In this document: piece by piece, positions 6,284-46,804 of the stretch | Numbering within the stretch: the stretch's first letter is position 1 | How the letters are laid out: the number at the start of each line of letters is the position of its first letter | NCBI GenBank assembly: GCA_030867685.1 | Contig: JAQOWU010000008.1 | Coordinates: 1,178,001-1,242,000, forward strand | Source: Wickerhamiella versatilis | Taxonomy: Eukaryota | Direction: 5' to 3' | DNA: 64,000 bases | Position numbers and translations under genes: made by a program | The notes under the pieces: model-generated | Databases searched by the model: none | Told to the model about the DNA's origin: nothing | Seen by the model: the letters and a program-made list of their open reading frames with translations, nothing else

Positions 6284-8116
6284 ATGGCAGCTAGGCAGCG
6301 AAGTCGGAGAGGAGACTTAGACCCTCAAAAAGAAAGCCTAGCTCAGCTATCTAATGAGGTCAACGACGGGGTTCCGAGTGAGGCTGTTTTGGGTCAGTTA
6401 CAAACTGTTTTGGAGGGGCTTAGAGATCGATCGCAGTCTTACCTCAAACAGCTGGAGGGACAGCTTAGTGGCTTCAATGAAGCCGCTCTGACTGTCCGAA
6501 AGGAGCTTTCGAGAAGAAATGGTAATACAAATTATGACGAAACTAGCGATCAACTTGTTCCAAAGCAAGAGGTGTCTAATGACTCCTTGTCAGGCACATC
6601 GTCACGAGAGCAAGCCGGTGGCGAGCCTATGGATGATGTTCAACACGACGCTTCAAATGAAAATTCATTGAAGACTGGTTCTGAATTTGAAAAGAGTCGA
6701 GACGAAAAGGGACGTGGGAAGTCTAAGAGCCACTTGGAAGTTACTGACAATATATCAAGCAAAAACGCGCACGCATCATCGCAGAATGCTAATGTTGGAT
6801 CATCAAATCAAAAGTTTGTACCTAATCCCAAATCAGAGTTTGTAGATGCTCAAGCGTTGCCCATCGGTGCGCTTGGCCTCTTTGAAGAAAATAGTGACGA
6901 TGAGGAGGAGGCAGCACTGAAAAAGAGGTTGGGAGTTGTGAGCTTTCCTACAACAGACTTGTCTGAATTCCTACCTGGTCCACTGCCTGAGGGAGACTTC
7001 ACAAGAGGAAAACCTCCAAACCAGGTGCAACTCTCAACTTTTTCATCTTTTCTTGAGCCATATTTTCGTCCGTGGAGTGAGGAAGATTTGGGTTTTTTGC
7101 AACAAAGAAATTTCAGTGAAGTAGTAAGTTTTGGACGTGCCATAAGTCCCTACGTGATCCCGCCCCTTGGCCCGCCTTACCCACAAAATTGGGTGGAGGA
7201 AGACCAACAAATGGCTTTCACTGATAGTAGGGAACGTCCGCCGCGTGTGAACCCGCCGGTACCACCATCTGTTGATGTTAGACAATTTTTTGCGAATGGA
7301 GCTCCTCAGGACTTGACAGATGCTAATGTTGAACAAGGTACAGTGGGGCTTGGACCACTCACTGCTAGACTTGTTACCGCATTATTACCCGAAGACCATG
7401 AGGATGATGATGCTGCCGAGGGAAGTGCTCCTCCTCAGGCACCAGCGGTTTCAATGATTCCCAAGCAGCCACAAAAAGGACCAATGATATCCGACTTTTC
7501 TAGTTTGGAGGAGCGGCTTAAGCGAGAGTTTAGGTATGTTGGTATTGTTGACTTGGAAGTTTTACGAAAATTTGCAGCGACCAAGAGGCAGTTTAAACTT
7601 GCCCATGATACCGGTGATATTGACATTGACGATCCTGGGGATATTGAAATTGACTGGGTTAATGGATTGGAGGATGACGAAATTTGTCGGGAGCTCCGAT
7701 TTTTACAGGAGAAACTCGGCGAGGTTTCGGCCAAAAATATAAAATTCAAACGTCGGCTTCTTCCCGTTATTCAAGAACAGATGGCTTGGCAAGAGTATTC
7801 CAATATTTTAGCGGATCTTGATAAGCAGATCGATCAAGCCTACTCGAGACGTCTCAAGATGCCAAAGCAGAAGAAAAAAGTAACGAAAGATCAGCATCGA
7901 AATGGAAATCGGGATCAAAGTCCTGCTCCTGCGACGCCTGATAGTTCGTCAACTACAGTCGATCATAAGCCTATGGTCAACGCGCTACTTGAGAAACGCC
8001 GTAGGTGGATCAATAAGATTGGATCAGTTTTTCGCCCTCCTCGCCAAATGCTCTGTGGATTCGAGGATCCCAAATTTGAGGGAATTGATGATGATGCAGA
8101 CGAAGATGAAGAATGA
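6284..8116 (+). CDS. NGG1: SAGA/ADA complex subunit Ada3
   Basis: NPKSEFV, LPG..DFTRGKPPNQVQLSTF, EPYFRP, YVIPPLG, GPLTARL, EDDEICRELR and EQMAWQEY motifs. Confidence 0.9.
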   Translation: MAARQRSRRGDLDPQKESLAQLSNEVNDGVPSEAVLGQLQTVLEGLRDRSQSYLKQLEGQLSGFNEAALTVRKELSRRNGNTNYDETSDQLVPKQEVSNDSLSGTSSREQAGGEPMDDVQHDASNENSLKTGSEFEKSRDEKGRGKSKSHLEVTDNISSKNAHASSQNANVGSSNQKFVPNPKSEFVDAQALPIGALGLFEENSDDEEEAALKKRLGVVSFPTTDLSEFLPGPLPEGDFTRGKPPNQVQLSTFSSFLEPYFRPWSEEDLGFLQQRNFSEVVSFGRAISPYVIPPLGPPYPQNWVEEDQQMAFTDSRERPPRVNPPVPPSVDVRQFFANGAPQDLTDANVEQGTVGLGPLTARLVTALLPEDHEDDDAAEGSAPPQAPAVSMIPKQPQKGPMISDFSSLEERLKREFRYVGIVDLEVLRKFAATKRQFKLAHDTGDIDIDDPGDIEIDWVNGLEDDEICRELRFLQEKLGEVSAKNIKFKRRLLPVIQEQMAWQEYSNILADLDKQIDQAYSRRLKMPKQKKKVTKDQHRNGNRDQSPAPATPDSSSTTVDHKPMVNALLEKRRRWINKIGSVFRPPRQMLCGFEDPKFEGIDDDADEDEE

Positions 8117-27019: not shown

Positions 27020-28909
27020 TTAGAGTATGGGTAGTTCCTGAAATTCACAATTACCATTTTCAGGCCAGAATTCCAGCCACCTGACCGTAGCGTCCCCCGT
27101 GAAGCTTCCAGAGTTCATGACATCGCATCCTTCATAGACCTGCTTGAGCTGAGGCACTGATGTATCAATAAGACATAAAGCGGATGGCCATTGGGGCATG
27201 GATAGGGAATGATCGCACTCCCATACTAATGGTCGGATGTCAAGTGTAAATGGAGACAGATGACACTGATCGAGAAGAGTTGCCATCACCTTACGTGCAG
27301 CTTCACCAGTTGACGGCTGGGATGGAATAGCATCAATCTGCAGAGGGACTATATCGTCACTTACATCTTCGTTTTCGTCGGCATCAGAGTTTGAGTCTAA
27401 ATCAGGTTCAGCATCTGAATCCCTCTCCCTGGTCGATGTAGTGTATGTGAGATCAACGTCGAGAGACGAAGCGCTGGGAACAACTATACTAGTCTTGCGC
27501 ATTCTCCTTCCACATTCGTCTCTCGCGAGGACTATTTCCTTACTGAGATAACAAATACGAGTGGGATTGCTCGCGAAAACGATATCAGGTTTTCCCAGAT
27601 TTATGCGACCTGTGAAAAGAGAGGGCAATGGCCTTAAAGGCCAAACGGGTGGACGCCCAGCAGAAACCACAGAATGCCAAGGATCATTGTCTCCAGGAAC
27701 AATTATAATTTTAGTCTGTTGAATCAATGCTGGAACCTCATCTAAAAGATCTGCCAAAGCATTCATGGCATCCCGAAAAGTATCCGTGCTCCGCATGCCA
27801 GGCTGAAATGGCTGGGACACAAAACTTCCACTGAGTACCAGCGCCAATGGAGGGCTCTCATTTATTCTAGCGAGTGCTTGTCTCAAGCCTCGTCGGTTTC
27901 GTAGGTTGTCAATATGCAGATCTCCCCCCATTATGACAATACGGTGGTTGTGCTTTTTCTCTTCCTCAACCATTTGCTTCTCCAAAGCAGGGTCTATCCT
28001 GTCTATGGATGTTGTATTTCCCGTGACTAGTCCGAAAAAGTCCATGTTGCCGAATGCTTCTTTTGTGGTTCCTCTCCGTTCTACAGGAGGAGGACCCAAG
28101 GTACCCACTTGAAAGTAGTCACCCATATTTATCCCGTAGCAAAGAACAAAGTTTCCTGGACAATAATAATGCTGCGGTGCATACTCTGTATTTTCGGTAA
28201 GTTCAAGAGCTATGCTACCACTCAAGTCGGAAATTTTCCAAGGTCCATCATTTTCGCGTGTCAGCATACCGAACAGAAAGAATTCCTCCAGTCGACGTCC
28301 TCTCATATTCTTGATGGACGTGACCGAGTACTTTCCACTTGACAATTGTGTTGTGGAAAGTTCAGGAGCAATAAACATCTCATCCCTAAGCATTCTGTCG
28401 TAAAGAATATTATATCGTGAGGCAAACATTTGCGTCAAAGCACTGGCACCTCCGATTTCTCGAGGTTGTGATGGCTGGCTCACATCGAACTTCTTTGTTG
28501 CAACATTGTATGAAAACCTTCTTTGTGAATGCGAATTTACGACTCGAAAGTAATTTCGCCAGTCGAAGTTCTTTTTTTGTTTTGATGAATCGAATGATCC
28601 GCCTTCTTGTAGATTTTCCCAATCACGAATTAAGCGAGCCAGGGTATCACCGCCTACCAACAAACCACGGTCTTCCTCCTTCCACATATGTGCCAAGTCT
28701 TCTAGGCATTTTTCTGCTGGCTTTTCTCTCCACTCCAGTCCAAACTTGCGGCCCAAGAACTTGGTCAGAACCTCCACAGCATCAACCTTCAGGGTTAATC
28801 CACAACGTCGCGACATAATACGATATGCAAACGGACGGACTTGCTTTACGTTAAGCTCAGCACCCGGAGTCATTATAGGGTGAGGCACGGCACGAAAGAC
28901 CTCTGTCAT
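27020..28909 (-). CDS. DPB2: DNA polymerase epsilon subunit B
   Basis: RPFAYRIMSRR.GL, FGLEWR, YCPG..VL, VPGDNDPW, SNPTRI, DQCHLSPF and VWECDHSL. Confidence 0.88.
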   Translation of the reverse strand: MTEVFRAVPHPIMTPGAELNVKQVRPFAYRIMSRRCGLTLKVDAVEVLTKFLGRKFGLEWREKPAEKCLEDLAHMWKEEDRGLLVGGDTLARLIRDWENLQEGGSFDSSKQKKNFDWRNYFRVVNSHSQRRFSYNVATKKFDVSQPSQPREIGGASALTQMFASRYNILYDRMLRDEMFIAPELSTTQLSSGKYSVTSIKNMRGRRLEEFFLFGMLTRENDGPWKISDLSGSIALELTENTEYAPQHYYCPGNFVLCYGINMGDYFQVGTLGPPPVERRGTTKEAFGNMDFFGLVTGNTTSIDRIDPALEKQMVEEEKKHNHRIVIMGGDLHIDNLRNRRGLRQALARINESPPLALVLSGSFVSQPFQPGMRSTDTFRDAMNALADLLDEVPALIQQTKIIIVPGDNDPWHSVVSAGRPPVWPLRPLPSLFTGRINLGKPDIVFASNPTRICYLSKEIVLARDECGRRMRKTSIVVPSASSLDVDLTYTTSTRERDSDAEPDLDSNSDADENEDVSDDIVPLQIDAIPSQPSTGEAARKVMATLLDQCHLSPFTLDIRPLVWECDHSLSMPQWPSALCLIDTSVPQLKQVYEGCDVMNSGSFTGDATVRWLEFWPENGNCEFQELPIL

Positions 28910-28918
28910 GGTGGGCCA

Positions 28919-28924
28919 ACGCGT
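28919..28924. promoter_or_regulatory. MCB element (ACGCGT) upstream of DPB2
   Basis: Perfect ACGCGT about 10 bp upstream of the ATG, plus CGCG at 28929. Replication genes are classical MBF targets. Confidence 0.5.
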
Positions 28925-31809: not shown

Positions 31810-33270
31810 ATGATGGCCTTTAAAACGCATGCAGCATCATTACCCTATGTGTGGGACCTGCATGGGAAGCGCATAATCAAGTCTTCGACTCATCGATCCT
31901 CTGCGTGTGAACAGATGGAAGCTGACCTCTGGGAGCTAAGTTACAATGTAGTCGCATCGCTCTACGATAGCGAGGACGACGAAGTTGGCGCTCCAAATTT
32001 TCCAATTCAGCGACCCGCCCATCTAGCCTCTACTGCACAAGGTGGGCGCTTAATGCAATGGGCAGGAAGTGCGCCGCGCTTTCAAGTTTCTTTCACTCAT
32101 AGAAAGGAGATAGTCTTTGATCCTCCGGACTTAACTCTTTCCATCGCACCGGCATCAAGTTCCCAGGCATCATCCGACTTGGTGGATGTAGATAGGAAAC
32201 TTGATATTAATCAAGCTCCAAAAAGTAGGGGATCATCAGATGAGTTTACAAATGCTAGAGTATCACCATTCAAAACTCAGCAGCAACGCTCACAGGCCGA
32301 ATCGGCCACAACGTCGAGCTCATCCACGGTTGGGAAAAGGCCAGTACCTGCAGGCCCTGCAGCAATGGTTGATGCTTCTAAGCAAAGTTTCAAAGAGATT
32401 GTGCATAGAATATATCGACTTAATGATCAGCGTGCTTCTCTCTACTTGCAAGACAGACTCAAAGCTGCTGTTCCTGGAGAATACGAGGAATTAGTCCAGG
32501 TAATTCGGCAGCATGCAGGCCAACTGATGACCCATCGTTTTGGAAACTTCCTAGTACAATGTATGTTAGGGCTAGCTACCCAAGATGAGGTTCTCGGGTT
32601 CGGAGAATGTCTACAAAGCAAGATTGCTTTGTTGAGCACTGATCAATTCTGTTGCCATGTCATTCAGAAATTGCTTGACGTTGCTCCCTTGGTAGTACAG
32701 GCACGCGTGGCCGCAGAGTTGCTAGACCAGATTGTTTATACTATGACGAATGTCAGTGGAAGCCATGTTTGGCAAAAGCTGCTTCATCTGCCTTGGCCCA
32801 GTGAGCTCCCTAGTATGACAGAATTAGTGAGGAATGCCATCGAGTTGAGTAGGAAGTCGGGAATCTCTGAAGGATGGATATCTGTTGCCGCCAACGAAGC
32901 TGGATGCGCCACTATTAAGAGCTTTCTGGGGGTTTCATCGGCTGGAAGTGAGCGCCAAGAGTGTGTAGACGAGCTTTTGGCTTCTTTGGACAGACTTATC
33001 ATGTGGCCTCATGCAACTCCCCTTGTCATGCGTCTCGCCTCAATTAGCACTAGCAGGAGCCGGACCACTTCACATATATTATCTCACGCTCGCAAATACT
33101 CACTTGATCCAACTTCATCTCAGGTACTTATTTCACTTTTACAGAATAAAATTCCTGGATTTGGTGCGAGGCTTGCAAATGTTTTGGCTCCATACCAAGA
33201 TGACCTTGCAGAAAATCAAAATGGAAAAAGAGTGTTGCAGACCCTCGATTTAATTCAACATAGAAAGTGA
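31810..33270 (+). CDS. Pumilio/PUF-repeat RNA-binding protein (Mpf1/Mcp2-like)
   Basis: NDQRASLYLQDRLK, HRFGNFLVQ, DQFCCHVIQK and GSHVWQK PUF repeats. Start uncertain. Confidence 0.75.
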   Translation: MMAFKTHAASLPYVWDLHGKRIIKSSTHRSSACEQMEADLWELSYNVVASLYDSEDDEVGAPNFPIQRPAHLASTAQGGRLMQWAGSAPRFQVSFTHRKEIVFDPPDLTLSIAPASSSQASSDLVDVDRKLDINQAPKSRGSSDEFTNARVSPFKTQQQRSQAESATTSSSSTVGKRPVPAGPAAMVDASKQSFKEIVHRIYRLNDQRASLYLQDRLKAAVPGEYEELVQVIRQHAGQLMTHRFGNFLVQCMLGLATQDEVLGFGECLQSKIALLSTDQFCCHVIQKLLDVAPLVVQARVAAELLDQIVYTMTNVSGSHVWQKLLHLPWPSELPSMTELVRNAIELSRKSGISEGWISVAANEAGCATIKSFLGVSSAGSERQECVDELLASLDRLIMWPHATPLVMRLASISTSRSRTTSHILSHARKYSLDPTSSQVLISLLQNKIPGFGARLANVLAPYQDDLAENQNGKRVLQTLDLIQHRK

Positions 33271-33371: not shown

Positions 33372-33390
33372 ACGCGATAGTGCAACGCGT
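33372..33390. promoter_or_regulatory. Tandem MCB-like elements (ACGCGA, ACGCGT) upstream of the RPO41-like gene
   Basis: ACGCGA at 33372-33377 and ACGCGT at 33385-33390, in an otherwise AT-rich 132-bp spacer. Confidence 0.45.
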
Positions 33391-33402
33391 TTAGGATGTC
33401 GT

Positions 33403-36309
33403 ATGAACCGACCCACTGTATTGCGCTGGTGTCCACGATCCTACTCCTATGTGCTTCAGGATCTTAGCAATATGCCACCAGTTCATCCTCCCCTGGTAGG
33501 GCGATTACCCAGCATTTCATCTTTGGAGAATTCTCAGCCGGATCCACGGCCTTTGGAGTTCCATCATTTACTTTTTCAGAATGACATTGCAAAAGCCCAG
33601 CTATTTCTCGATAAAAGGGAAACTCAACTTAGCCTGAATGCTTTAGAGGAGTATTCTCAGGCCTTGATATCTCGCGGTGGAGAAATTCCGCAGCGTCTGC
33701 GCGCCAGCGATCGACTACCATATATATTGCGAGGGCTAAGACCAGCTAAAACTACTGTCCAGAGTGTTGAAGATGTTCTTGATTGTAAGCTGTCACAATG
33801 GAAGAGGCCTTGGTGTACGGTATGGGATGAGCTGGACGCTGATTCGAGAACTTCATTTGAGAAGAATTATACTGAGGAAAATATCCAGCGACATGAATGC
33901 CTTCGAGGATGGTTACCTGAACCAGCACTGCACTTGCGAAATCGTTGGGCAACCATAATTAGATATCGTCCCTTGGGAAAACCCTTCACTGTGCTTGATC
34001 ATATCAAGGACCGTATTCCCTTGGTAATTGCCCATTATTTGGCAGAGTTAGTGGTGGATATGTCCACAGTAACCTTTCCGAAAAGTATTGCAAGCATTTG
34101 CCGTGAGGTTGCTTTCCGTCTTGAGGATGAACTCCTTTCCAAGCTTGCACACTTAGAGGGAATAGGATATTGGTATACTGGCTCTGAATACCTATGGGGT
34201 ATCCTTAGCACGATAAAATGGTCAGACAAAGATCGTCTTGTCATTGGTGCACACTATTTAAAAAGTGCGTTGAAAGCTTGTAAATTTAATCGATCACATC
34301 CCAGCACTGGCCAGGTGGTGGAACGTCCTGCATTTTGGCATACTTGGTATATGGATGGTGTTTCGAAGAGAGGAATTTGCAGAATTAATCGTGAGCTAGT
34401 TAATCAGATCAGATTATATCAACATGGGAAAATATCTTCGACCCAAGTACCTTTGTTGGTAAGACCTGGACCTTATGCTTCGAGACAGGATTTGGTCGGT
34501 GGACTAAGGTGTTCACCTGGGCTTCTTTCTTCAGGTGCTAGAAGCCAGGAGCAGCAGATTGCTATCGAGAAAGCAATGGAAGTGGGCAGCATGCGGTCTG
34601 TTATAAAGTCCGTTGAAGCTTTAGGTGACACAGCTTGGCGCATTAATTCAAATGTTCTGAAAGTCATTAAGTCGTTCCTTGAGAAATCCCAAACGATTGG
34701 AGATGTGCCTTCTATGCCTTCAGATGCGAAGACTCGCGAAAACATTGAAAAAGCAGCGATATTTCGAAGGTATAAAGATGCTATCAAGGTAGCAGAAATC
34801 TTGTCAAAGAATGGACACAGATTTTATGAGAGACACTATCTTGACTTTCGTGGTCGCTGTTACCCTCACACGGGGAGCTCACTCACTCATATGAGTAGCG
34901 ATAGCCTCCGTGCTTTGTTCGATTTCTGGGAAGGTAGACCTCTTGGGAAATCAGGAATGTTTTGGCTGAAAGTGCATTTAGCCAATGTATACGGCGTATC
35001 AAGAACTTTATCTTTTCACAAAAGGGTTAACTGGGTCGATGTTCAGCTTGAAAATATCATAGGAAGTGCGCAAGACCCTCTTGGGAACAAATGGTGGCAG
35101 GAAGCTGAAAAACCATTCCAATCCCTGAGAGCATGCTTTGAACTTAAAGCCGCTTTAGAGGCCGGAGACAGTGAATCATTCATTTCGCATATTTCTGTCG
35201 CACAGGATGGGTCCTGCAATGGACTACAGCATCTGGTAGCGTTGTCCAAAGATGAATCTTTGGCACCATACGTGAATTTAATGCCAAGATCTTCTTCTGA
35301 AGGGCCAGGCGATATTTATTCAATGGTGGCTAATTCTGTTGGCGTATCGAGAAGTTTAATTAAAAAACCCATAATGACTACATTTTACGGCGCATCGCGG
35401 CATACTATAAGTGAAATCTTACGCGACGAACTTGGACCACGTACCGAAAGAGTGGCAAAAAGTATTCGAGATAAATTGGATGAACTTGGTGAGGGTGCTT
35501 GGGCAATTTACGAGTGGCTTTCAGAGATGGCCTATCGCATTTCCCATTCTGCAAGAGGGGATATGTATACAAGGGATCCTGAGTTGATTGGAAAAGCGTG
35601 GTATACATCAGTTAGTTGGACAACCCCGTTAGGGTTGCCAATTGCTCAACCCTATGTAGATCCTGGGCTAATAGCAGTGCGTACCCACTTGCAAGCATTT
35701 TATTGCAAATCACCCTACCATCAGGCCAAAGTGGATACTCAGAAACAGAGAATATCATTTCCACCTAACTATATACATAGTCTTGATGCCGCGCATATGC
35801 AATTGACAGCTTTACGGGCCCAAAAAGCCAATATAAGCTTTGCTGCAGTCCATGACAGCTTTTGGACACATGCTGGTGACATGGATACTTTGCGACGGCT
35901 TCTCCGTCAAGCTTTTGTACAACTTCATGAAAAATCCCAGATAAAGCTTTTGCTGGAGGAATGGAAGCAGAGGTATGCGGGCTTTTGGCAGTTGGCATTC
36001 TTACATCAATCAAGTCCTATCTATGAGAAAGTTCGATGGCTGAGGAATGGAAAGATGGGCAATCCTTTAATTTTGCGAAATGAGCTGGACCTTGAATATA
36101 CGAACCAATTCGGGGGAACTACCCGGGAGACCCCGTGGACAATCATTAAAAATAGTGGTGAACGCATCAGGTACGAGAATGGAGTCCCTCACCTAGGACT
36201 GACTGGACAAGTGACAAGAGCGTGGATACCGCTATTGTTTGACCCAGTCCCACCTGCTAGGGCGCTCGATATAGAAAAAGTGCTACAAAGTGAGTATTTC
36301 TTCCATTAA
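33403..36309 (+). CDS. Single-subunit T7-like mitochondrial RNA polymerase (Rpo41 family, divergent)
   Basis: DFRGRCYP, motif A QDGSCNGLQH, motif B R..IKKPIMTTFYG, WTTPLGLP..QPY, PPNYIHSLDAAHM, motif C VHDSFWTH and C-terminal EYFF. Presequence-like N-terminus with RSY/S. Orthology to canonical RPO41 is uncertain. Confidence 0.9.
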   Translation: MNRPTVLRWCPRSYSYVLQDLSNMPPVHPPLVGRLPSISSLENSQPDPRPLEFHHLLFQNDIAKAQLFLDKRETQLSLNALEEYSQALISRGGEIPQRLRASDRLPYILRGLRPAKTTVQSVEDVLDCKLSQWKRPWCTVWDELDADSRTSFEKNYTEENIQRHECLRGWLPEPALHLRNRWATIIRYRPLGKPFTVLDHIKDRIPLVIAHYLAELVVDMSTVTFPKSIASICREVAFRLEDELLSKLAHLEGIGYWYTGSEYLWGILSTIKWSDKDRLVIGAHYLKSALKACKFNRSHPSTGQVVERPAFWHTWYMDGVSKRGICRINRELVNQIRLYQHGKISSTQVPLLVRPGPYASRQDLVGGLRCSPGLLSSGARSQEQQIAIEKAMEVGSMRSVIKSVEALGDTAWRINSNVLKVIKSFLEKSQTIGDVPSMPSDAKTRENIEKAAIFRRYKDAIKVAEILSKNGHRFYERHYLDFRGRCYPHTGSSLTHMSSDSLRALFDFWEGRPLGKSGMFWLKVHLANVYGVSRTLSFHKRVNWVDVQLENIIGSAQDPLGNKWWQEAEKPFQSLRACFELKAALEAGDSESFISHISVAQDGSCNGLQHLVALSKDESLAPYVNLMPRSSSEGPGDIYSMVANSVGVSRSLIKKPIMTTFYGASRHTISEILRDELGPRTERVAKSIRDKLDELGEGAWAIYEWLSEMAYRISHSARGDMYTRDPELIGKAWYTSVSWTTPLGLPIAQPYVDPGLIAVRTHLQAFYCKSPYHQAKVDTQKQRISFPPNYIHSLDAAHMQLTALRAQKANISFAAVHDSFWTHAGDMDTLRRLLRQAFVQLHEKSQIKLLLEEWKQRYAGFWQLAFLHQSSPIYEKVRWLRNGKMGNPLILRNELDLEYTNQFGGTTRETPWTIIKNSGERIRYENGVPHLGLTGQVTRAWIPLLFDPVPPARALDIEKVLQSEYFFH

Positions 36310-36321
36310 TGTAGCTTAATA

Positions 36322-36912
36322 TCATGTAACATATGTGTGTAAAAATGCTAATAGAGAAAGCATCAAACCGGGGTCTTTATCAATTCCCTGGTTCTCGCGA
36401 TATCTCCGTTTCTCAAGCTGGGTCGGTTCTCGCTGGGTTACTAGAAAATTGTGGAGACCATGCGCAGCATGCTGTCCATAACCTAGTAGCCAATCAGCTA
36501 TTTTGAGAATTCCCTCAATGCCAACGTTTTCATCGATTGATAGGACATCGGTTTCTGTCATATCCGATTCGCTTGAATCTGCTCGGTCACGAACTATAAG
36601 ATGAGAACCTGTTCGAACAAGAAAATTTGCCCTTTCAACAGAGTTGGGGCGACGGCTATTTCGAGAATTGGCCCTTGAAGACGTTACGGACGTTGATCCT
36701 CTCAAATTCCTCGAGCTTGACCTGAGTGGTTCATCGGATTCCCAGAACCTGGTAACATCGTTACTTGCCAGAAGACGATTTGCACGGCGCTCACTTGCGA
36801 GATCTGCGAGGCTCTGTGACCTAAAAAGTGGAGTTCTTTCACTTTTGGAATCAATTCCCCCTTGTGAACTCGTCACCCTCCAGTCATTCTCATGCATACT
36901 CATAGATAACAT
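36322..36912 (-). CDS. Hypothetical Ser/Arg-rich protein
   Basis: 196-codon ATG ORF with low-complexity S/R content and a hydrophobic C-terminus. No confident family. Confidence 0.6.
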   Translation of the reverse strand: MLSMSMHENDWRVTSSQGGIDSKSERTPLFRSQSLADLASERRANRLLASNDVTRFWESDEPLRSSSRNLRGSTSVTSSRANSRNSRRPNSVERANFLVRTGSHLIVRDRADSSESDMTETDVLSIDENVGIEGILKIADWLLGYGQHAAHGLHNFLVTQREPTQLEKRRYRENQGIDKDPGLMLSLLAFLHTYVT

Positions 36913-37449: not shown

Positions 37450-45142
<7,693 letters not shown>

Positions 45143-45259
45143 TACTATCAATTAAAAAGAAAACGCTAGATGAATAAATATAAAGTTTCCCTTAGTTATA
45201 TTCATGTATATCTTTCACTTGATGAGAAAGAGTCAGCTTGCCTGACCACCTCTTACGTC

Positions 45260-46804
45260 ATGAAATCGGCGGAGGAAATACGTGTTGAGCTTTTGGCCAA
45301 ACGTCAACAGGCTGCAGAATTTGCGCGCATACGTAAAGAAAAGCATGAGAAAGCCCTATCCGCTGTCAGTCAACTTCATGATCTTGGTTTCCCGTTTTGG
45401 CGCATCTTGGAGATGGCCAAGCTTGATCCAGAATATCTCAGGGGTGCCTATAGAGAACTCCATCTGTTGCGAGAAATACCTCCTAATCAAGTTCCATCAT
45501 CTCAGCCAATACATCACCATGGTACGACAGTTCCGGAGTCGCAATCTGTAGGCTCGAAGAACAAATTTGGCACCCAAAGATGGACAGCTGATGAGGTTCG
45601 TGTCGATCTTAGCGATTCTGATGCATATTCCGAGCCTCTCGACTCCCCTGAGTTTGTAATTGTCCCTGCGGATACTTCTGAGAAGTCCGATAATGAGGAA
45701 CGACAAGAACCTTTAGAGCAACAAAAGTCAATGGATCCAGCGAGCTCTGAGTACAGACACGAATTGGAACGTAATGAGCACGGAATTGATGAGTCGCATG
45801 ATGAGAACTCATCGACATCTGAGAGTGACGAGATGCCCGGTGATGGCGAGACGTCAAAAGAACAACAAGTTGTGGTGCAACCTGAGACCCAACATCCAGA
45901 CTTAGACAGAGAGGGTTCCCACCAAGAGGACTCTAAAAAAATTTACGATCACGAGGCGTTAACTCGTGAGAGAGCACGGGTGGAAGAGAGGCTTCGAGAA
46001 ATTCGGGCCCACAAGGAGAAGCAAAAAATGCTTGACCGTCTTCGGGACACGGTTGCAAAACGTGAACGGGTGGTACTACAGGCACGAAATTTGCACAATT
46101 CTATAGAAAAAGTTACAGATTCTATTGAAAAGCAACGAAAAGAACTTGAGGGATATCGTTCCCAACAACAGATTGCAGACAAGGAAGTTGCTGAGCTCTG
46201 CCATAATGAAGAAGTTATAAGAAAAGAGCTTTTTGCAGCAGATAATTCTAATGTTGAAGAAGAAAAAGAAGAAGAGCCAACTAAAAGTCGGAATTTGAAG
46301 CGCTCTGCTTCAGAGCTCGAAGAATCTAATAATCCTAATGAATCCCTTTCTGATGAGGGAGGTGATGTTCTGCTGGCGGAGTCACCTCTTATGTGCTTTT
46401 CATCTTATCGACTGGCACCAGGAATGCTACAAGACCTTTCTAAGTGTTTCTCCAGAACATTTAATTCTATGTTTGTGAATGATTTGCAAAATCGATATTT
46501 ATGTTCTTCCGAGACGGCAGAAGTGTCCTGTACTAAAAAAAATTGCCCCGACATACATGCCAGCGAGTTTGACCCAGACCCTATCGCAGTGTTCAGGTAT
46601 ATGGGATCGTGCGTGGTTGGTGACCCGCAGGAGTTTCGCGACAATATCCGAGATCGACTTTCCCAAGTGGAGCAGGTAAATCCTGAAGGGCCCACGAGGG
46701 AGGATATTGCACGTCAATTTATTGAGTATAGAAAAAGTGTTGATCCCACGAAATTTCTTGACTGGCATGGTTGGAACGTAAATCGTCATTTAGGGCAAAA
46801 TTAA
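45260..46804 (+). CDS. Red1/ZFC3H1-like protein with coiled coil and C-terminal zf-C3H1
   Basis: ESPL..FSSYR followed by LC..E....C....C..IH resembles the zf-C3H1 domain, preceded by a long coiled coil. Start at 45260, or 45170. Confidence 0.6.
   Translation: MKSAEEIRVELLAKRQQAAEFARIRKEKHEKALSAVSQLHDLGFPFWRILEMAKLDPEYLRGAYRELHLLREIPPNQVPSSQPIHHHGTTVPESQSVGSKNKFGTQRWTADEVRVDLSDSDAYSEPLDSPEFVIVPADTSEKSDNEERQEPLEQQKSMDPASSEYRHELERNEHGIDESHDENSSTSESDEMPGDGETSKEQQVVVQPETQHPDLDREGSHQEDSKKIYDHEALTRERARVEERLREIRAHKEKQKMLDRLRDTVAKRERVVLQARNLHNSIEKVTDSIEKQRKELEGYRSQQQIADKEVAELCHNEEVIRKELFAADNSNVEEEKEEEPTKSRNLKRSASELEESNNPNESLSDEGGDVLLAESPLMCFSSYRLAPGMLQDLSKCFSRTFNSMFVNDLQNRYLCSSETAEVSCTKKNCPDIHASEFDPDPIAVFRYMGSCVVGDPQEFRDNIRDRLSQVEQVNPEGPTREDIARQFIEYRKSVDPTKFLDWHGWNVNRHLGQN

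Follow-up and report, generated by a model that had tools for sequence, protein, structure and literature searches.

What would a yeast do with a second mitochondrial RNA polymerase? The question is raised by a nuclear gene in a stretch of 64,000 nucleotides of Wickerhamiella versatilis (contig JAQOWU010000008.1; the whole stretch is called the window). The gene, named here RPO41b (33403..36309, + strand), is intron-free and encodes a second T7-type mitochondrial RNA polymerase of 968 amino acids (aa), which is the query of our comparisons; the canonical RPO41 is called RPO41a. A single mitochondrial RNA polymerase is the usual expectation for a fungus. The initial annotation of the window had read the gene as a possible fast-evolving paralogue under G1/S control, perhaps dedicated to priming mitochondrial DNA (mtDNA). 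Our analysis makes it very probable that RPO41b dates from a duplication of RPO41 when the Dipodascales originated or somewhat earlier, has been kept since, and encodes a second enzyme predicted to be catalytically competent.

Identity and descent of RPO41b

The RPO41b product matches the whole Pfam RNA_pol profile (PF00940; 392 bits, E 4e-117) and RPOL_N in part. Among proteins of solved structure, S. cerevisiae Rpo41 is its best match (334 bits), followed by the human enzyme (260) and T7 (150), and the phage matches among those listed reach 25-33% identity. A Foldseek search with the AlphaFold model (pLDDT 79.9, pTM 0.78) returned yeast mitochondrial RNA polymerase structures at the top (E 2e-45, TM about 0.7), so that the comparison with T7 and Rpo41 structures suggested at the outset yields a T7-type fold with the yeast enzyme closest. 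Motif A (QDGSCNG, 35203..35223, + strand, catalytic Asp602) and motif C (HDS, 35851..35859, + strand, catalytic Asp818, read as HDSFW from 35851) lie exactly where the initial annotation had put them in the 968-aa open reading frame (ORF), and the O-helix residues R650, K654, M658, Y662 and G663 are present. With the domain above cut-off, the fold and the catalytic residues in place, RPO41b is by its sequence a member of the PF00940 family descended from fungal Rpo41 that fails the tests of a canonical orthologue.

Those tests separate two genes in the compact, intron-poor genome (9.88 Mb, 8 contigs). A genome search found exactly two T7-type polymerases, RPO41b and a canonical Rpo41 of 1271 aa on contig C7, and the count agrees with the earlier view that RPO41b is not the housekeeping enzyme. 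The C7 copy carries RKVVKQTVMTHVYG and a normal thumb, and its gene lies tail to tail with MOB2. Because a MOB2 homologue flanks the polymerase in four of 80 metagenome loci, all four with canonical yeast Rpo41, the C7 copy can be taken as the positional RPO41 orthologue; it also branches with other Rpo41 proteins, and RPO41b shows neither this branching nor MOB2 adjacency. Directly upstream of RPO41b lies instead a PUF-family gene (31810..33270, + strand) with almost no RNA reads in four runs, a silence that is possibly meiotic. A Geotrichum-like locus (L008, 91% to the protein P0021) likewise has a PUF gene directly upstream of its RPO41b orthologue (26% identity to the PUF of the window, E 3e-32), the sole PUF neighbour among the 80 loci, and this common synteny argues for RPO41b orthology across the order.

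The top matches of RPO41b are short divergent proteins, the closest named ones coming from Wickerhamiella and relatives. In four named Dipodascales an RPO41b-type protein stands beside a canonical copy: W. sorbophila (985 and 1301 aa), T. vanleenenianus (1060 and 1432 aa), S. lignohabitans (970 and 1144 aa) and G. candidum (the cluster of P0021, canonical copy 1380 aa). B. adeninivorans has an RPO41b-type protein of 1153 aa, its canonical copy not being among the matches listed. The type is retained in both Dipodascaceae- and Trichomonascaceae-type yeasts. Public annotations label both copies plain Rpo41 or mitochondrial RNA polymerase, and the split into two polymerases is therefore hidden in databases; we found no literature report of a second RPO41 in these yeasts, and subscription papers or supplements may hold one.

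Trees were computed from 655 core columns by quick searches without bootstrap, with no labelled mitochondrial-plasmid polymerase included. FastTree on 52 rows, phage-like ones among them, grouped 20 paralogue rows (0.94) outside all eukaryotic rows. With the phage-like and fish rows taken out (38 of the 52 rows), IQ-TREE under LG+C20 recovered all 17 paralogues as one clade (SH-aLRT 100) on a stem of 0.81, loosely beside S. pombe (80). After the removal of S. pombe and eight long or redundant rows, the clade fell within Saccharomycotina (97) as sister to the non-Lipomycetales rows (87/94) in the resulting 29-row tree, and a joint clade with canonical Dipodascales Rpo41 was not rejected (p-AU 0.36). 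The separate clade and the canonical copy on C7 support the fast-evolving paralogue suspected from the start.

Active site, fingers, thumb and specificity loop

We compared 27 paralogue-type with 27 canonical Dipodascales-type proteins, hand-picked and given in S. cerevisiae Rpo41 numbering; 20 of the former were also in a tree and seven were assigned by motif. Eleven catalytic and template-contact positions (R827, R829, Y831, D945, G946, R1010, K1014, G1023, N1160, H1188 and D1189) are invariant in both sets and so unchanged in 27/27 paralogues. O-helix Y1022 is kept in 26/27 and M1018 and S1190 in 24/27, the exceptions being Wickerhamiella-type proteins. One of these, P0005, has a Tyr-to-Phe change at the residue that selects ribonucleotides (rNTPs) over deoxyribonucleotides (PMC7939475 section 13, on the tyrosine and rNTPs). 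Variants at the nucleotide-selection site were also noted across P0005, P0003 and P0121, all Wickerhamiella-type, with the O-helix Met changed to Phe or Ile and HDS to HDG.

The fingers (35311..35391, + strand) had drawn attention at first, and the 20-residue segment reported missing before motif B is indeed absent: DIYSMVANSV begins at 35311 and RSLIKKPIMTTFYG at 35350, and from D(V/I)Y to the O-helix arginine there are 13 residues, against 33 in S. cerevisiae Rpo41. The O helix itself is intact, and the segment after it is 10 residues short (27 against 37). A pre-O-helix length of 13 occurs only in RPO41b and P0002; other proteins of the Wickerhamiella/Starmerella (W/S) type have 18-21 residues and the other members measured 32-43. 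By these lengths the deletion is local to the W/S branch, and it loses its standing as a defining trait. Motif B was also read as a phage or plasmid sign; this does not hold, since the canonical R-x3-K-x3-M-x3-YG spacing is retained and the proline form KxPxMT is found in the canonical yeast proteins P0182 and P0200.

The changes that run through the clade, which the initial annotation did not mention, are in the thumb tip and the specificity loop. The thumb of RPO41b (34636..34845, + strand) has 69 residues, compared with 91-95 in 27/27 canonical Dipodascales-type proteins, and the model shows one 25-residue helix in it (445-469). Among paralogues this region (735-825) measures 40-94 residues with a mean of 78, and it is nearly gone in P0006 (40 residues). 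The Mtf1-contacting tip is largely lost from RPO41b, with 6 of 26 residues left; D775, P776 and R/K787 mark the tip in 27/27 canonical rows, and tip identity is 0.08 among paralogues versus 0.55 among canonical copies. Residues 772-779 of Rpo41 are one of two Mtf1 contacts (PMC10600007), and residues 780-787 hold the scrunched non-template strand (PMC10600007, bioRxiv 2020.04.13.038620).

The Mtf1 hairpin and the intercalating hairpin lie at 34273..34383 (+ strand; landmarks from PMC10600007). The former has 17 residues in RPO41b against 21, with an identity of 0.20 among paralogues and 0.60 among canonical copies, and the latter has its full 17 residues, with D and G at the H641 and N642 positions. 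The fungal y-ins insertion and the C-terminal YFFx are present. In a predicted complex of RPO41b residues 170-800 with the Mtf1 of this genome, in which the alignment was not used, the score was 0.52, and the best of three controls reached 0.00; at least 41% of contacts recur between runs, and partner pLDDT is at least 81. In the calibration, passing scores of 0.60 or less comprised 5 of 78 solved complexes and all four mismatches that passed.

The specificity loop (35647..35721, + strand) is of full length and reads LIAVRTHLQ, typical of the clade, in place of KRQVxTxLQ. Across paralogues the K1127, K1128 and Q1129 positions are mostly occupied by L, M and L/A/I, respectively (Q1129 is kept in 23/27 canonical rows), and P1142 stays. 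The residues that set specificity for the nonamer promoter, which we take to be K1127, Q1129, Q1135 and T1136, are L, A, Q and A in RPO41b. According to PMC4558008, the loop of Rpo41 recognises the promoter in the manner of T7.

Promoter boxes, expression and mitochondrial genome

Two CGCG boxes close to the ATG were the reason for proposing G1/S control, and both are there: ACGCGA, similar to the MluI cell-cycle box (MCB), at 33372..33377 (+ strand, -31) and a perfect ACGCGT MCB at 33385..33390 (no strand assigned, -18). The PF04042 gene at 27020-28909, presumably DPB2 by its N-terminus, has an ACGCGT at about -15 (28919-28924), as first described. Among 62 ORFs not picked by motif, five have at least one box less than 60 bp from the ATG and one, RPO41b, has two. 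Genome-wide, the tandem pattern was matched 34 times, at 20 sites. The nine fetched intergenic sites other than that of RPO41b precede Timeless/TOF1, POL3, an MCM gene and RAD51, a homeobox gene that we assume to be YOX1-like, a TEA factor, a GH76 gene and a Say1-like gene, with two sites lacking a nearby ORF. When individual genes were checked, paired boxes appeared at PRI1, at one of the two genes for the large subunit of ribonucleotide reductase (RNR), there in a weaker form, and at one gene of the two in the PIF1 family, with no box within 250 bp of canonical RPO41, MTF1, DIM1 or MIP1. The boxes of RPO41b thus share the promoter layout of DNA-replication genes of this genome (TOF1, POL3, MCM/RAD51, PRI1), which supports this part of the earlier reading; APSES factors are encoded, and from their sequence context the boxes are probably functional in this yeast. 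As a separate observation, MCB boxes stand about 5-30 nt from the ATG at TOF1, POL3, an APSES factor and the DPB2-like gene (L094, L095, L119 and window 28919-28924), so near in a compact genome that they would lie at or inside the 5' untranslated region. Of the two RNR large-subunit genes (L121, at G000:C8:3666067, and L122), one lacks both the usual N-terminus and an MCB box.

Raw RNA reads were taken from four runs of two studies, with no cell-cycle series as far as listed. They cover the whole RPO41b ORF in 4/4 runs at roughly 15-70x (both directions summed), with no joints listed, a depth of the same order as that of the DPB2-like gene and above that of the PRP8 start. In run X7, ten molecules start at 33386, inside the second box, at an adjacent depth of 16 (one of four runs, rows shown), and 33386 is likely the transcription start. 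Reads and window differ at 18 fixed positions of the gene, 11 synonymous and seven changing an amino acid, none at a catalytic position; the pN/pS of 0.18 indicates purifying selection on the sequence.

An out-of-frame ATG 7 nt before the main one opens a 23-codon upstream ORF (33396..33467, + strand) over the RPO41b start, which may damp or tune translation or favour Met24; the gene model of the closest orthologue, P0002, starts at the Met24-equivalent. The N-terminus (33403..33459, + strand) is presequence-like in composition, as previously noted, with three basic and no acidic residues among 19. The N-terminal word xWCxxxY/F recurs in the W/S-type orthologues P0121, P0005 and P0006, and many orthologues, the Geotrichum-like first exon included, have basic and acid-free N-termini. 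The product is presumably mitochondrial.

The assembly contains the mtDNA (contig C2, 33.9 kb). The nonamer WTATAAGTA occurs in it 12 times. Ten of these words precede a gene of the same strand by no more than about 210 nt; one of the remaining two is antisense in nad3 and the other (6828, minus strand) is aimed into a gene-free stretch. Because ten of the 12 already precede genes, little obvious transcription is left for a second enzyme, and a k-mer scan of the mtDNA brought out no second over-represented promoter-like word. In this stretch, where the two transcription directions converge, lies an array of three tandem four-way copies of about 110 nt and a partial fourth (L110:6270-6790), into which the nonamer at 6828 points with no downstream gene on the same strand. 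Each copy is a cloverleaf of a closing stem and three hairpins, with z between -6.3 and -9.4 and two of 32 pairs compensated, and the array had no Rfam match. It is possibly an origin, resembling an origin region, or else a terminator or an RNA of another kind. We regard it as a candidate substrate of RPO41b, to which no observation ties it. Elsewhere in the mtDNA, the word (TAG)TTTATTTTACA stands at C2 7051, 14256, 18781, 20970, 23389 and 28250 (minus), just after minus-strand protein genes, and three of these copies are followed by a nonamer promoter some 35-45 nt further on; the word is a candidate signal for processing of mRNA 3' ends.

The genome also has one MTF1 (341 aa) and one MIP1, and the only gene found for an archaeo-eukaryotic primase (AEP) is the nuclear PRI1. 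RPO41b carries the T7 RNA polymerase fold and not a TOPRIM or AEP primase fold (Twinkle-type, PrimPol); judged by this, it would at most work like a primase without belonging to the dedicated mitochondrial primases. Other genes of the window include a well-expressed 196-aa ORF without Pfam match (36322-36912, minus strand), whose 3' end overlaps that of RPO41b, a 544-aa ORF without Pfam match (45170-46804, + strand) and a single-copy PRP8 (37450-44280, 2276 aa) that looks unusually divergent and N-terminally short, its matches to solved Prp8 proteins covering residues 58-2272.

Possible roles and known systems

For the role of RPO41b we lean, tentatively and with slightly less than even confidence, towards a low-processivity primer-maker for mtDNA. 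The canonical Rpo41 with the single Mtf1 would transcribe the mitochondrial genes from WTATAAGTA promoters, as the positions of these promoters and the conserved thumb tip and loop of that copy suggest. RPO41b would make short RNAs that prime the replication or repair of mtDNA. With a short thumb and trimmed fingers it would be less processive and separate strands less well, the altered specificity loop would direct it to a different sequence or a single-stranded structure, and the boxes would wire it into the MCB (G1/S) regulon of this yeast together with DNA-replication genes. We infer activity, low processivity, G1/S timing and priming from the sequence, and a primer-maker fits best because the grip on Mtf1 and the hybrid is weaker, the reading loop is changed and the boxes are those of the replication regulon. 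The Tyr-to-Phe change of P0005 also speaks for this role, since an enzyme that makes primers could bear it more easily than a transcriptase could.

The chemistry has precedents. On single-stranded or bubble DNA, Rpo41 can initiate RNA by itself (PMC4558008), mitochondria are described as having no designated primase, with Rpo41 proposed in its place (PMC4558008, PMC7939475), and POLRMT primes at a stem-loop (PMC5390496). Yeast primers are shorter with Mtf1 (PMC5390496), and Mtf1 binding is therefore compatible with priming. A wider hypothesis, which we consider possible but doubtful, is that the Dipodascales have split two jobs, Rpo41a-Mtf1 transcribing and RPO41b acting as a primase devoted to mtDNA that evolved from an RNA polymerase. 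Such a primase would have a short thumb, would select sugars less strictly in some members, would be under cell-cycle control in the present lineage and would lay its primers at a structured origin like the cloverleaf array.

Several observations weigh against a primer-maker. The tandem-box pattern is only mildly above the control (34 versus 24 matches), and the 17 sites fetched divide into seven within ORFs and ten intergenic ones. No box accompanies MIP1, whose product would have to extend such primers. No CGCG box was found in the 706 bp upstream of the L008 orthologue, the sole non-W/S one with upstream DNA, so that control at G1/S may have been gained locally, and in S. cerevisiae the replication of mtDNA is not coupled to the cell cycle (PMC10584693). 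Thumb shortening is graded (80-88 residues in Geotrichum- and Sugiyamaella-type proteins, 94 in P0309), and for this reason low processivity may not hold clade-wide. The paralogue loop keeps its length and has conserved residues of its own (R1131 in 20/27, T1132 in 23, L1134 in 25, Q1135 in 26), and it therefore fits the reading of a promoter as well as that of an origin. The nonamer count in L110 is at chance level (3 versus 3.65), the presumed mitochondrial location is deduced from N-terminal composition only, and binding of RPO41b to Mtf1 is weakly supported by the model, the pass of which may be explained by the solved Rpo41-Mtf1 complex.

The loop is also an argument for a transcriptase of alternative promoters, like plant RpoTmp, that with the shared Mtf1 would read a second promoter for some mitochondrial genes or non-coding RNAs and be boosted at G1/S here. 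We regard this as the main rival reading, less likely than priming but strong enough to be taken seriously. The full-length loop with its clade-specific residues, the retained intercalating hairpin and y-ins region and, weakly, the Mtf1 complex score would suit such an enzyme, and plants do keep duplicated organellar polymerases (PMC3895441). Its partner contacts would have to work with a degenerate thumb tip, a poorly conserved Mtf1 hairpin and only one MTF1 gene, and its promoters would have to be found where canonical nonamers already precede most transcription units and the k-mer scan yielded no second word.

A role outside the standard mitochondrial one, as a nuclear or dual-located S-phase enzyme or as a DNA-binding or repair factor with secondary catalysis, is unlikely. 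A start at Met24, to which the overlapping out-of-frame ATG and the P0002 model point, would drop the presequence, and MCB boxes are common to nuclear replication genes and absent from MIP1, MTF1 and RPO41a; against this stand the basic, acid-free N-termini of many orthologues, the N-terminal word conserved in W/S-type proteins and yeast mitochondrial polymerases as the best structural matches. It is very unlikely that RPO41b is a redundant or decaying duplicate with no distinct role. The long branches and repeated deletions of the W/S lineage would fit decay, as would the concentration of 18 of the 33 listed read differences of a 12-kb stretch in the 2.9 kb of RPO41b, but the gene is expressed under a low pN/pS and is kept across both groups of yeasts with an invariant active site, even in a streamlined genome. 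Capture of a phage or mitochondrial-plasmid polymerase is scarcely credible, because the FastTree placement with phage-like outgroups is countered by the mixture-model position within Saccharomycotina (in trees with no labelled plasmid polymerase), by the joint clade with canonical Rpo41 that was not rejected, by the y-ins insertion and YFFx end and by much closer matches to yeast Rpo41 than to T7 or the listed phages.

If RPO41b is a primer-maker, it fills a place for which no dedicated enzyme is known in yeasts. How the replication of yeast mtDNA is primed is an open question in the field, since the one candidate for the primase doubles as the essential transcriptase; with two polymerases that can be deleted one at a time, the question becomes directly testable, in yeasts that are in culture and in industrial use. 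For the study of polymerase mechanism the clade is useful as well, because nature has made in it a series of thumb and fingers deletions around an invariant active site.

Compared with known systems, S. cerevisiae Rpo41 (6YMV/6YMW, 8C5U, 8ATW) and the C7 copy share with RPO41b the fold, motifs A, B and C, DxRGR, the intercalating hairpin, specificity-loop length, y-ins and the C-terminal YFFx. RPO41b differs from Rpo41 in being about 300 aa shorter, in its thumb (69 versus 91), fingers (13 versus 33) and post-O-helix segment (27 versus 37), in hydrophobic residues at K1127/K1128/Q1129 and in a new conserved Arg at 1131; unlike Rpo41 and the C7 copy, it has MCB boxes in its promoter and a PUF neighbour rather than MOB2, and coexists with a canonical copy. 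T7 and other phage single-subunit polymerases belong to the same superfamily, with a size near 900 aa and the same catalytic motifs, but match much more weakly, and RPO41b has fungal-specific insertions and no evidence of transfer. Plant RpoTm, RpoTmp and RpoTp also go back to nuclear duplication of a phage-type organellar polymerase with both copies kept (PMC3895441). The yeast event is independent, in cells that lack plastids. Compared with RPO41b, the plant paralogues are probably much less remodelled. The proposed chemistry is the same as for POLRMT at the light-strand origin (OL) and Rpo41(-Mtf1) on single-stranded DNA, where a T7-type polymerase lays short RNA primers for the mitochondrial DNA polymerase (PMC5390496, PMC4558008, PMC7939475); there one enzyme does both jobs, whereas RPO41b would be a separate product devoted to one of them.

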